A stretch of DNA of 64,000 nucleotides from Escherichia phage LF82-1: the sequence record PV648359. One strand, 5' to 3'. The notes under the pieces are model-generated. The model searched no databases. It saw only the letters and a program-made list of their open reading frames with translations, and was not told the DNA's origin. Shown one piece after another: positions 16,973-59,381 of this stretch. Both the position numbers and the translations under genes were made by a program. Numbering within the stretch: the stretch's first letter is position 1; each line of letters opens with the position of its first letter.

Positions 16973-17005
16973 AGATTATACTCCAACCATCCTTGGTTGT
17001 AAACT
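16973..17005 (-). promoter_or_regulatory. early promoter (minus: GTTTACA-accaaggatggttggag-TATAAT) for ORF 16449..16943
   Basis: Plus-strand ATTATACTCCAACCATCCTTGGTTGTAAAC; same element recurs at 58329 and 59349. Confidence 0.6.
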
Positions 17006-17009
17006 GATT

Positions 17010-17687
17010 TTATCGCTGTTTTACACTTATCGGGTCAGGATTCTCAGGGACATCTTCAAGGCCAAGCGCATAACGCTGAGCATATTTTAACATCAAAATA
17101 TCTTTAGCACAATCATGAATACTATCATGGGCAACGAATCCTTTTAGCGTACCCATCGGTAATGGACACATACTTAATCCTCGTGTCAACGAGTAAGCTT
17201 CGATTGCCGTACGAATATCGCGTTGAGCCCAGAATTTAACCGGTTCTAATTTATCAGTATCAATCTCTGGTTCAAGAACACCTTCATCACGATAGAGATC
17301 ACGAATCAAATCGACCAAGATCGGGAAGTCAAAGCTCATACCACGGCACCACATTTGCGATTTCCATTGGTCAACTTTATTAGCTCGACAATAATCTAAA
17401 AAGATTTTAATGCCTTCAAGCGTAGTGACATCGTCTTCAGACGGAGCCAGGTTTTTACGTGCTTCTGCTGATTGTTCTTTCCACCATTTCATAGTGGATT
17501 TAGCGAAAACTCGCTTCCCTTTTTGAGAAGCTAAATTAAATTTAATTCGCTTACCTCGTTGAACAAGTTCTTCAAATGATTCAACAACTTCAGGGTCGGA
17601 ATTATATGCAATAACCGCCAGGTCAATAACAGCCGCTTTTGATGTATTGCCGAATGTTTCAAAATCTATAATAACATCAGTGCTCAT
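17010..17687 (-). CDS. dexA: exonuclease A (DnaQ-like 3'-5' exonuclease)
   Basis: 225 aa (T4 DexA 227 aa); N-terminal DFETFG exonuclease motif; adjacent to dda. Confidence 0.8.
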   Translation of the reverse strand: MSTDVIIDFETFGNTSKAAVIDLAVIAYNSDPEVVESFEELVQRGKRIKFNLASQKGKRVFAKSTMKWWKEQSAEARKNLAPSEDDVTTLEGIKIFLDYCRANKVDQWKSQMWCRGMSFDFPILVDLIRDLYRDEGVLEPEIDTDKLEPVKFWAQRDIRTAIEAYSLTRGLSMCPLPMGTLKGFVAHDSIHDCAKDILMLKYAQRYALGLEDVPENPDPISVKQR

Positions 17688-17696
17688 AATTTTCTC

Positions 17697-19010
17697 TCAA
17701 ATAAAATGGACGTCAAAACGACCACGAGTCGTGCCGACATACAATAACTGTTTAGCTAATTCTGAATCAGCATAATGGATACACGGTGTATAAACAAAGG
17801 CCGTGTCAACAGACATACCCTGGGCCTTATGGAAGGTTGATACAGGTAGTGCCTTCACCTTAGTGAACATACGTTTAGCATCCCAGAATTCGCTCCATGG
17901 AGCTTTACCGCCTTTATTCCAGAATTTATATGTTTCTGCGGTCTTAGCCAAAAACAAATTGAATTTATAAAGCTCTTCTTCAGAAGAAATAACCTTTATA
18001 TCTTCACGGATGTATTCTTCATCATCACCATATGTTTCTACTGTAAGATTCCAGTATCGTATCATATATTCGCCTGAAACACCGCGTGCTTTAACGAATG
18101 TAGACGTTTCTACAGCATCTCGAATACGAACGAACTGCCCGTTATTGAAAAGCATTTCGGTCATATTTTTGCCATCTAGCTTATATGTCTTGGTAAACGG
18201 CTCTTGTAGAACAATGACTTCGTCTTTAATAAATGGTTTTTCTGTTTCAAGAAGTTTTCGGCGAATAATTGAATTCAACTTATCTACTGACTTATTTGTG
18301 AATGCCATCATTCGATTTTCGAAAAGGTCTTCAGGAGTTTTAACGACATTAAAATAATTCATCATATACGATTTAAGGTCTGTATATCCATGAACACCAT
18401 GCCCATCAACTACTTTATCATAAATCCATTTGCCATTACGAATATCAGTCGCAACATCAATAATTGGTGCATTGCTACGTTTAACTTCTGTAAGGTCGCA
18501 TTGCACAAAGTCTTTGTGAGTGAAGAAAGGACTTAGATACGCAGTTGATTCGCCTGGGTCTACCGGTCGAATCTGACATCGGTCACCAATTCCAATTACT
18601 GTGCACCATTTAGGGATACTAGCTAACATTATTTTAAACAGAGAACGGTCACACATTGACGCTTCATCAAATAACAGTACACGACACAAGGCTAAGTCGG
18701 GAACCTTTTTCTGTTCAAACAATACGTTTTCTTCGTATGTAGTTGGGTTGATTTTAAGAATGCTATGAATAGTCGATGCTTCTTGACCCGCAAGTTTGCT
18801 TAGAACCTTTTTAGCAGCATGTGTAGGGGCTGCTAAAATAATACCTGATTCTCCGGCAGAAATAAGAGCTTCAACGATGAATCTAGTAAGGGTTGTTTTA
18901 CCTGTACCAGCAGGCCCATTAATAGTTACGTGATGTTTCTTTTCTTTAATAGCGTTCATAACAACGTTGAAGGCGTTTTTCTGGCCTTCAGTCAAATCAT
19001 CAAATGTCAT
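17697..19010 (-). CDS. dda: Dda DNA helicase (SF1B)
   Basis: 437 aa; Walker A GPAGTGKTT, Walker B LLFDEASM; matches recalled T4 Dda. Confidence 0.9.
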   Translation of the reverse strand: MTFDDLTEGQKNAFNVVMNAIKEKKHHVTINGPAGTGKTTLTRFIVEALISAGESGIILAAPTHAAKKVLSKLAGQEASTIHSILKINPTTYEENVLFEQKKVPDLALCRVLLFDEASMCDRSLFKIMLASIPKWCTVIGIGDRCQIRPVDPGESTAYLSPFFTHKDFVQCDLTEVKRSNAPIIDVATDIRNGKWIYDKVVDGHGVHGYTDLKSYMMNYFNVVKTPEDLFENRMMAFTNKSVDKLNSIIRRKLLETEKPFIKDEVIVLQEPFTKTYKLDGKNMTEMLFNNGQFVRIRDAVETSTFVKARGVSGEYMIRYWNLTVETYGDDEEYIREDIKVISSEEELYKFNLFLAKTAETYKFWNKGGKAPWSEFWDAKRMFTKVKALPVSTFHKAQGMSVDTAFVYTPCIHYADSELAKQLLYVGTTRGRFDVHFI

Positions 19011-19318
19011 CGTAAAGTCCCTGCAATTGGAATACTAACAATACGGCCTGTGTCCAGAATTCGTTGATACAATCTTTGCGTCTCCGCATCTAGTTTAACG
19101 TGTTTCATTTCAAGCTTATTAAACCAGAACTTACGCGGAGTTTCGACCATTCTTAGAACTCCCATTTTTAAATCTGTTTTATACTGTGTTTTCAAAGTGT
19201 CGAAAACTTTATCTGCAATATCCTTTCTAAAAAATACTGCAGGACGATGTTCATCAAGTGGAACAGGGACAGTAAATCCTTCCATATCTCGATAAACTAT
19301 TGCATATACATAAACCAT
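19007..19318 (-). CDS. hypothetical protein (dda.1 position)
   Basis: 103 aa ORF overlapping dda start. Confidence 0.5.
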   Translation of the reverse strand: MVYVYAIVYRDMEGFTVPVPLDEHRPAVFFRKDIADKVFDTLKTQYKTDLKMGVLRMVETPRKFWFNKLEMKHVKLDAETQRLYQRILDTGRIVSIPIAGTLR

Positions 19319-19320
19319 AA

Positions 19321-58302: not shown

Positions 58303-58328
58303 AATATTTTCCTCTCGTTAAGATAGAT

Positions 58329-58361
58329 TTATTATACTCCAACCATCCTTGGTTGTAAACC
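58329..58361 (-). promoter_or_regulatory. early promoter (GTTTACA-accaaggatggttggag-TATAATA) for ORF 57352..58302
   Basis: ATTATACTCCAACCATCCTTGGTTGTAAAC, identical to the copy at 16973. Confidence 0.6.
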
Positions 58362-58364
58362 GTT

Positions 58365-59324
58365 TTATGATTTTAATGCATTCATTGCATTAAAAAGTTT
58401 AGAGTACTGCAACTGGAGATTCGTTACAACACTTTGAGCATCACGAAGCTTAGCTTGTGCTTTGTCAAGTTCAACGGACAGTTGGTCTGCAGTAGCCTTG
58501 ATTTGGTTGTAATGATAATCTTCGGCCGGAAGAAGGTCATTAGAAACATTTAGTTTTACTGCCGACAGTTTGCACACATTTGGCAAACCTTTAAACATAC
58601 CGGGTTGTGTCGGAGAATATGCGCTTAGAACCTCTGCATTACCGACTGGTGTTGCTGTAATATTGCCTTCAAACAATGCATTTTCCTTTTTAAGATTTTG
58701 ATAGTATTCAGAGTCTTTGTGCCACCATGGCGCAGGAACCTTTTTACCAATAGATACACGAGCCTGGATAGCGATATGGCCCTTATTCTTGATAGGGTCG
58801 ATAATATTAAGCTCACGAGAATAAATTGCTTTAATTTGGTGAATATTATCACCTAACACTTCCAACGCTTGGTGGAATACACGAGCAACGTTATCGTTCT
58901 TAGGTTTATATGTAAGAGTGAACTCGTTCTCACTGATAACCATGATTTCTAACTTATCGTAAGTATATTTCAAATGTTTCATGTTAATTGCTTGAGGACG
59001 AATACGAGAAGCAATGGCCATCAGATTGTTAAGGTTATTTCGGAACTGTTTAGCGAAATATTGTCCTTCACCGCCGATACAAAAATTACGAAGTTTCTGT
59101 TTGGCTAATAAACGGCTGAACTCACCATTTTTAATGAACTCTTTAACGGGTGTGTTAGTAATGCATTCAAATTGAGTAAACATACGAGAATTAATCCCAT
59201 AATATGAACAGATTTCCTCAATCTCTTCAGGAGTCTTTACAGGCATACGGATAGGATTAGGTCCTGGAGTATATGCGTTCGAGGTAAATTCTTTGATAAG
59301 TTCTCTACGTGTAATAAAAGCCAT
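58365..59324 (-). CDS. hypothetical protein with C-terminal coiled coil
   Basis: 319 aa; own conserved early promoter. Confidence 0.5.
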   Translation of the reverse strand: MAFITRRELIKEFTSNAYTPGPNPIRMPVKTPEEIEEICSYYGINSRMFTQFECITNTPVKEFIKNGEFSRLLAKQKLRNFCIGGEGQYFAKQFRNNLNNLMAIASRIRPQAINMKHLKYTYDKLEIMVISENEFTLTYKPKNDNVARVFHQALEVLGDNIHQIKAIYSRELNIIDPIKNKGHIAIQARVSIGKKVPAPWWHKDSEYYQNLKKENALFEGNITATPVGNAEVLSAYSPTQPGMFKGLPNVCKLSAVKLNVSNDLLPAEDYHYNQIKATADQLSVELDKAQAKLRDAQSVVTNLQLQYSKLFNAMNALKS

Positions 59325-59348
59325 TTTATATTCCTCATGTTGAAAAAT

Positions 59349-59381
59349 TTATTATACTCCAACCATCCTTGGTTGTACATC
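59349..59381 (-). promoter_or_regulatory. early promoter (same family) for ORF 58365..59324
   Basis: ATTATACTCCAACCATCCTTGGTTGTACAT. Confidence 0.55.

Follow-up and report, generated by a model that had tools for sequence, protein, structure and literature searches.

Promoter-early stem-loops (PeSLs), early promoters with a stem-loop placed between −35 and −10 or across the −10, were defined in the hyperplastic regions of the phages RB49 and phi1, where mutual recombination between these cassettes excises or inserts the genes that they flank and where, in RB49, the stem-loops cut the expression of a reporter like a strong terminator (Arbiol et al. 2010, PMC2839356); they were later extended to T4/PST and KVP40/nt-1 (Comeau et al. 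2014, PMC4122927). For RB69, 58 early promoters have been predicted with a hidden Markov model (HMM; Nolan et al. 2006, PMC1524935). Here we analyse a 30-nucleotide element that is repeated in non-coding DNA at two distant loci of Escherichia phage LF82-1 (sequence record PV648359), in a stretch of 64,000 nucleotides that we call the window. The repeats are probably copies of one T-even early-promoter cassette of PeSL type. The element belongs with the T-even early promoters and PeSL cassettes, its sites having themselves been predicted in RB69 in 2006, and as a promoter family it is routine T4-type biology; the new points are a chimeric cassette at the place where the gene nrdC.5 is missing from related phages, and a covarying hairpin with an AGGA loop in the promoter spacer.

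The likeness to PeSLs lies in the intergenic sigma-70 early promoter with AT-rich DNA upstream and a stem-loop between −35 and −10, in the clustering of the copies in hyperplastic regions beside variable genes, and in the recombination of neighbouring copies, by which the gene between them is lost or gained and a chimeric cassette remains. There are differences, too: PMC2839356 and PMC4122927 treat RB49/phi1, T4/PST and KVP40/nt-1 and not the RB69-like phages; the RB49 stems are G/C-rich and are real terminators, whereas the stem described here is short and is followed by no U-tract; in T4/PST the stem-loops are drawn upstream of the promoter; and the invariant AGGA loop is mentioned in neither paper. 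With the T4 early promoters and the RB69 predictions of PMC1524935 the element shares GTTTAC at −36 to −31, TATAAT, the A-rich upstream DNA and the position 5′ of early genes, but it lacks the TGn extended −10 that is part of the 'uber' promoter description. Consensus and coordinates are given by Nolan et al. 2006 (PMC1524935), and the portions of that paper available to us do not mention the identical spacers or the hairpin.

The phage is, as its sequence indicates, a Mosigvirus, that is, an RB69-like T-even coliphage, with Shigella phage Shf125875 and RB69 as its nearest named relatives. The window segments 15500-18500 and 56000-60500 show 100% identity with Escherichia phage LF82-2 (PV648360.1), in whose coordinates the window spans genome positions 64001-128000, and the overlapping ends of the neighbouring genome pieces also agree. 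Essentially all genes of the window lie on the minus strand, as seen from the GC skew and the list of open reading frames (ORFs), and the element must therefore be read on that strand, where it is GTTTAC-AACCAAGGATGGTTGGAG-TATAAT. The exact 30-mer occurs at 16975-17004 (copy 1) and 58331-58360 (copy 2), and a copy with two mismatches at 59351-59380 (copy 3), while shuffled sequences are expected to hold none. The earlier note on this DNA had placed identical 30-base elements upstream of three ORFs; two are indeed fully identical, and the third departs at 2 of 30 positions, both at the −35 end (ATGTAC for GTTTAC). The degenerate copy reported there at position 16415 was also recovered (copy 4, 16415-16444, minus strand like the others), its 22-nt core CCAAGGATGGnTGGAGTATAAT matching at 16417-16438 with one difference where 0 matches are expected; over the full 30 nt we count 5 mismatches by reading, with a weak −35, TGTATA. 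Further copies of the 22-nt core are absent from the complete 170-kb genome. In the phage collection the exact 30-mer was found in 143 records at 240 places, all in Escherichia and Shigella phages, RB69 included.

When the copies are aligned with their flanks, similarity ends at the element, except for CTATCTTAAC, which copies 1 and 2 alone share from 4 nt past TATAAT. The proteins encoded downstream are not paralogs by blastp, with the exception of a 36-aa C-terminal match (44% identity) between two MotB-like ORFs. An origin of the copies by chance, or as the margins of larger coding duplications, has thus a practically negligible probability: the weak C-terminal similarity of these two proteins is all that speaks for it, while the shuffles give no matches, the flanks cannot be aligned and the downstream proteins are otherwise unrelated. 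We rejected a coding duplication on the blastp comparison and the flank alignment together, and the repeats are discrete elements.

As for promoter character, copies 1 and 2 match 11 of the 12 positions of the sigma-70 consensus hexamers, copy 3 matches 10, and the spacer is 17 bp. In copy 1 the −35 hexamer TTTACA lies at 17003-16998 and the −10 hexamer TATAAT at 16980-16975; the −10 of copy 2 is at 58336-58331; the −35 variant of copy 3, TGTACA, abuts and overlaps the stop codon of nrdC.6; in copy 4 the intact −10 (16422-16417) is the only promoter hexamer left, and TTTACA is still intact there in a metagenomic relative (L028). A-rich, UP-like sequences precede copy 1 (GATAAAATCA) and copy 2 (CATAAAACG), each including the upstream stop codon, and the sequence upstream of copy 3 is less A-rich. 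The promoter scan found no TGn extended −10 in copies 1-3, where GAG stands instead. All four sites coincide with predicted RB69 early promoters, namely Pe:8947 (copy 1, HMM score 27.2), Pe:51019 (copy 2, 27.8), Pe:52042 (copy 3, 18.2) and Pe:8387 (copy 4, 6.2), and the ranking of the scores parallels the quality of the −35 hexamers. Moreover, the copy-2 site is annotated as a promoter in the GenBank Mosigvirus record OL960576.1, while the T4 annotations NC_000866 and AF158101 hold no promoter features at the orthologous sites. The assignment of these repeats to a promoter family in the earlier note is thus supported. A mini-ORF inside the element, ATG GTT GGA GTA TAA, was considered and rejected, having no spaced Shine-Dalgarno sequence and not being conserved in T4 (by reading).

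The copies have also taken part in recombination. The gene nrdC.5 lies between copies 2 and 3, which are direct repeats at a distance of 1,020 bp, and the junction predicted for a deletion of this gene, made of the 5′ end of nrdC.3, one cassette and the 3′ end of nrdC.6 (541 nt), was searched for in the phage collection. In 21 phage records, one place alone accounts for 80% or more of the predicted junction; the four of them that were listed, p000v, FL31, WFL6982 and AV110, match it in one piece over 541/541 nt with 96-97% identity. In p000v, nrdC.6 and nrdC.3 are adjacent with a single cassette between them, and this cassette is chimeric, carrying the ATGTAC of copy 3 at its 5′ end and the downstream gaatctatcttaac of copy 2 at its 3′ end, so that the crossover must have fallen within the identical core. 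The junction is compatible with a deletion or an insertion of nrdC.5, in one or more events. The corresponding junction without motB.1 (dexA, cassette, motB) was not found by the search, the rows shown being undeleted matches in two pieces.

In RB69, 48 identical nucleotides are common to copies 1 and 2, and within the Mosigviruses the paralogous copies are identical while the orthologous site of the Tequatrovirus T4 differs; identical paralogs with differing orthologs are, at the level of sequence, the signature of concerted evolution. These results, together with the chimeric cassette at the exact nrdC.5 junction, bear out the proposal of recent copying or recombination, for which junctions in related phages had been suggested as the place to look. 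Neither locus has the gene content and order of T4: motB.2 and nrdC.7 stand elsewhere, and this phage has no nrdC.4, dexA.1 or dexA.2. In T4 there is no cassette between nrdC.6 and nrdC.5, the extra gene nrdC.4 lies between two cassettes with AGGA hairpins, and a remnant, GTGGAGTATAAA, stands upstream of motB after a different promoter. A locus search with the NrdC.3 protein returned 4 loci only. At 58327-58330, the 4 nt after the −10 of copy 2, the sequence reads cttt, aaat or gaat across strains (RB69, phiE142, p000v, L017, G53), each allele being that of another copy in LF82-2 (cttt of copy 1, aaat of copy 3, gaat of copy 4), and this polymorphism looks like the trace of short gene-conversion tracts.

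The second main result concerns the spacer. The earlier note had remarked on a near-dyad there; a dyad is present, although the true one is CAACCA-AGGA-TGGTTG and not the quoted CCAACCATCCTTGG. It forms a 6-bp stem with a 4-nt loop between −35 and −10 (16999-16984 in copy 1, 58355-58340 in copy 2, 59375-59360 in copy 3), with a predicted RNA free energy of −6.9 kcal/mol. In copy 4 the hairpin is ATCCA-AGGA-TGGAT (16440-16427), so that, relative to the arms CAACCA/TGGTTG of copies 1-3, its arms ATCCA/TGGAT contain a compensatory A-T to T-A change. Stem length varies between 5 and 7 bp, with AGCCA/TGGCT in T4 upstream of nrdC.3 (the ortholog of copy 2), CCACA/TGTGG in T4 upstream of nrdC.4, TACCACA/TGTGGTA in T4 upstream of rIIA.1, AACACCA/TGGTGTT and CACCA/TGGTG at LF82-2 genome positions 41044 and 144098, CATCCA/TGGATG in the IMG/VR contigs L021 and L023, and CTTCCA/TGGAGG, with one T.G pair, in the IMG/VR contigs L029, L038 and L066. 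Among 13 distinct T-even variants, pairing holds in 92% of the stem cells; column shuffles give 64%, with 0 of 500 reaching 92%, and sliding the partners gives 27-42%. Four of the six stem pairs show two-sided changes. The AGGA loop and its closing CA/TG pairs are the same in 10 of the 13, as CAAGGAUG; the other three are one base off, with a UGGA loop in one and C for the 3′ closing U in two.

Some rows of this comparison came from a filter that itself required a stem, which weighs against taking the pairing figures at face value; two samples drawn without such a filter, an anchored scan and the octamers of the genome, agree with the result. In the scan anchored solely on GTTTAC...AAGGAT...TATAAT, 36 of 48 distinct sequences have the imposed closing pair only, 5 have two pairs and 7 have 3-7 consecutive pairs, the last group including all six T-even sequences (4-7 pairs). 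The octamer CAAGGATG occurs nine times in the genome, with an extended stem at all 6 places in promoter spacers and without a stem at the 3 places in coding DNA. Moreover, when perfect tetraloop hairpins with a stem of at least 5 bp were collected from the 170-kb genome, six with an AGGA loop were found on the sense strand, all in early-promoter spacers, where about 1 was expected. Rfam at gathering thresholds returned nothing in the window, and the broad IMG/VR pattern scans gave mostly chance matches, only about 10 T4-like contigs being informative.

The hairpin is not confined to early promoters. Downstream of nrdC.8 in T4, the element TTATACCA-AGGA-TGGTATAAT is the mapped middle promoter PnrdC.7 (start site 53325; Hinton 2010, PMC2988021), which shares the CCA-AGGA-TGG hairpin directly upstream of −10 but has a MotA box in place of the −35 hexamer and belongs to another temporal class. 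Since the same hairpin stands there between the MotA box and −10, it is not a part of −35 recognition. We take this T4 element, from its sequence, as the counterpart of a related element in the window at 60411-60436 (minus strand), between nrdC.8 and nrdC.6, which consists of cGCTTTA, then 13 nt with the hairpin ACCC(A)-AGGA-(C)GGGT, then TATAAT; judged by the MotA-box-like cGCTTTA, it resembles a middle rather than an early promoter.

Similar hairpins were also seen elsewhere. Outside the window, LF82-2 genome positions 26701, 41044 and 144098 (loci L212, L214) hold an early-promoter sub-family, GTTTACAAACAC(C)A-NGGA-TG(G)TGT..TACTAT, in which the hairpin is shifted downstream by 2 nt within the spacer and one loop is UGGA. 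Intergenic (G)CCA-AGGA-TGG(C) hairpins, including GCCA-AGGA-TGGC, occur in IMG/VR contigs that are seemingly not T4-like (L007/L010, L048, L049/L054, L068); these hairpins precede a start codon by 20-30 nt in four of the five groups and by about 60 nt in L068. Stems lengthened by at least 2 pairs were found in 10 of 55 non-T4 contexts against about 3 expected, with a search pattern biased towards them.

What the dyad does was considered under several readings. A double-stranded DNA operator, at which a dimeric phage or host repressor would shut off this subset of early promoters, might be expected exactly where the dyad lies, between −35 and −10, and the shut-off of T4 early promoters is described as incompletely understood. 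The protein-binding spacer proposed in the earlier note is not supported in this form, however: the stems covary freely (AACCA/TGGTT, ATCCA/TGGAT, AGCCA/TGGCT, CCACA/TGTGG and others), one orthologous position being filled by three different pairs, and the T4 stems are quite unlike those here; a T.G pair, which RNA tolerates but a DNA half-site does not, occurs in one variant; the invariant core CAAGGATG is non-palindromic and not self-complementary; and a middle promoter that depends on MotA has this hairpin as well. We regard an operator as very unlikely. Because of the free covariation, the non-palindromic invariant core and the T.G pair, the dyad is most likely, on sequence grounds, a single-stranded hairpin, and most likely one of RNA. 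Such an RNA could act as an intrinsic terminator or attenuator, as in the PeSLs of RB49 and phi1, blocking read-through from upstream and insulating each cassette. The lowered reporter expression in RB49, the same position in a spacer directly after a stop codon and the conservation of the structure agree with this, but a stem of just 5-7 bp and about −7 kcal/mol, with GAGUAUAAU rather than a U-run behind it, speaks against it, and a strictly conserved AGGA loop is unneeded for termination, so that on balance we consider a terminator unlikely.

The loop itself directs attention to proteins that bind or cut GGA, the resemblance to CsrA/RsmE and RegB/S1 sites consisting of a short hairpin that is closed by CA...UG pairs and presents a GGA in its loop. 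If the hairpin were a RegB site on read-through early mRNA, the cut would fall within the loop at GG^AU and, for the subfamily with GGAG, at GG^AG 3′ of the stem, and cleavage would uncouple or destabilise the downstream cistron unless it was transcribed from the cassette's own promoter. The loop is A-GGA with a paired U next, and in the main subfamily GGAG follows the stem on its 3′ side and then UAUAAUA, a GGAG with A/U-rich sequence just 3′ of the stem being a further point of resemblance to RegB/S1 sites. RegB cleaves GGAG/U sequences that lie between early genes, and it can dispense with ribosomal protein S1 where GGA is left unpaired and the nucleotide in fourth position is constrained, which is the geometry predicted here; an 'endoribonuclease' gene stands at the T4 regB position, and of the 7 positions downstream in the consensus for strong sites, GGAGRAYARAA, GGAGUAUAAUA fits 5 (by reading). 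Nevertheless, this is a resemblance, the GGAG outside the stem is missing from half of the hairpin variants, and a review has secondary structure generally protecting against RegB, which makes this function doubtful. Equally doubtful, in our estimate, is a site for host CsrA, which would repress the downstream gene on read-through RNA together with the GGA of the Shine-Dalgarno sequence, or be titrated. Here CAAGGAUG equals the RsmE/CsrA core CANGGANG; the E. coli SELEX consensus, RUACARGGAUGU, is matched by the T4 variants ACAAGGAUGU at 10 of 12 positions, their GGA standing in the hairpin loop as it does in the selected ligands; GGA recurs in the downstream ribosome-binding sites about 35 nt away (by reading); and CsrB is unusually stabilised during T4 infection. 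Against it, the motif is a resemblance only, our literature search found no paper tying CsrA to T-even mRNAs, RegB would likewise need GGA-containing loops, and there are only about 7 sites per genome. The more general proposal, that the AGGA-tetraloop hairpin is a dedicated protein-recognition signal hidden in the spacer and present on read-through but not on cassette-started transcripts, with CsrA or RegB as the reader, is a tentative possibility.

We return to the early-promoter cassette of PeSL type, which we prefer. Unmodified host RNA polymerase would use the cassettes immediately after infection, and the transcripts for motB.1, motB, nrdC.3 and nrdC.5 would start at them, in two dispensable variable regions; each cassette fills the short gap from the stop codon of one early gene to the ribosome-binding site of the next. 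As the comparative data show, mutual recombination in a highly recombinogenic phage keeps the copies near-identical, by concerted evolution, and the homology of the cassettes provides breakpoints for the loss and gain of gene cassettes. Because the hairpin lies upstream of the cassette's own transcription start, it would be present only in read-through RNA from upstream promoters, where it would most likely insulate or mark the gene junction, by attenuation, processing or protein binding. The 17-bp spacer may be the only freely variable stretch upstream of the start site in which a signal specific to read-through RNA could be placed.

Several observations weigh against this interpretation. For RB69-like phages we found no mapped transcription start or 5′-end data at these sites, so we can only infer that the promoters are active. 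Copy 4 has no usable −35. At the site orthologous to copy 2, T4 has the weak hexamers TTTAAA and TATAAA but has retained the hairpin, which may therefore be what selection chiefly acts on at some sites. A consensus terminator scan gave no terminator-like call at any copy, the stem being short and without a U-tract, and the 'terminator' half of the PeSL comparison is for this cassette putative and drawn by analogy. The 21 records without nrdC.5 may descend from a single event. Finally, in phage ACG-C40 (L226, NC_019399.1 47500-47930) the start of nrdC.5 is fused to the last 72 codons of nrdC.3 and nrdC.4 is removed, and this deletion has its ends within nrdC.5 and within nrdC.3, with no promoter cassette at either boundary.

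If the hairpin is read as proposed, T-even phages would dual-code a DNA promoter and an RNA regulatory site in the same 30 bp, in early and in middle promoters, and the same gene could be handled differently depending on the promoter that made its mRNA. A covarying AGGA-loop hairpin in early and middle promoters of two genera is therefore a candidate post-transcriptional signal separating read-through from promoter-proximal mRNAs. The presence or absence of nrdC.5 with a chimeric cassette extends the PeSL-mediated shuffling of modules to the RB69-like genus, and cassette shuffling of this kind may inform how therapeutic T-even coliphages gain and lose accessory genes.

The genes around the copies were named from the RB69 annotation and by blastp against T4 proteins. 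Read 5′ to 3′ on the minus strand, the first locus has the order dda, dexA, copy 1, motB.1, copy 4, motB, and the second nrdC.6, copy 3, nrdC.5, copy 2, nrdC.3. All of the following lie on the minus strand: dexA (17010-17687) is upstream of copy 1; the motB.1 ortholog (16449-16943) is downstream of copy 1 and upstream of copy 4; the motB ortholog (15901-16386) is downstream of copy 4; the nrdC.6 ortholog (59380-60375) is upstream of copy 3; the nrdC.5 ortholog (58365-59324) is downstream of copy 3 and upstream of copy 2; and the nrdC.3 ortholog (57352-58302) is downstream of copy 2. All copies are sense-oriented between one stop codon and the next start codon, at 25-35 nt from the start codons of the motB.1, motB, nrdC.3 and nrdC.5 orthologs, and the intergenic gaps of about 55-65 nt amount to the 30-bp promoter and a leader of about 25 nt. 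Both loci fall within regions that are dispensable in T4, where motB is an early gene.

Other promoter repeats and hairpins were noticed in the window. A pair of promoters 44 kb apart, at 5437-5482 and 49702-49747 on the minus strand, is 87% identical over 46 nt and has a dyad straddling −10, GAGAGC-agagTATAAT-GCTCTC, and at the equivalent place the T4 motB promoter reads GGGACC-agagTATAAT-GGTCCC, with a fully compensatory stem. A larger and looser early-promoter family comprises 319-368, 5706-5755, 6218-6267, 14847-14896, 26860-26909 and 27171-27220, with further loose early-promoter repeats at 2810-2863, 3131-3184, 20100-20153 and 62453-62506; these looser families are presumably the 'first family' of the earlier note. 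At least three members (5706-5755, 6218-6267 and 26860-26909) have an inverted repeat across −10, for example TAGGACTA-tgaTATAG-TAGTCCTA. Upstream of the DNA polymerase ORF (37892-40603), at 40640-40690 on the minus strand, a UUCG-tetraloop hairpin, ATGGGAC-ttcg-GTCCCAT, is followed directly by TTGGAGTATAAT, which gives the same GGAG and TATAAT module as in the cassette, with a different and stronger hairpin and no −35. Lastly, 21802-21849 is an exact tandem duplication of the 24-nt unit TCACCACGTTGTTCTTTAGGAGCC.

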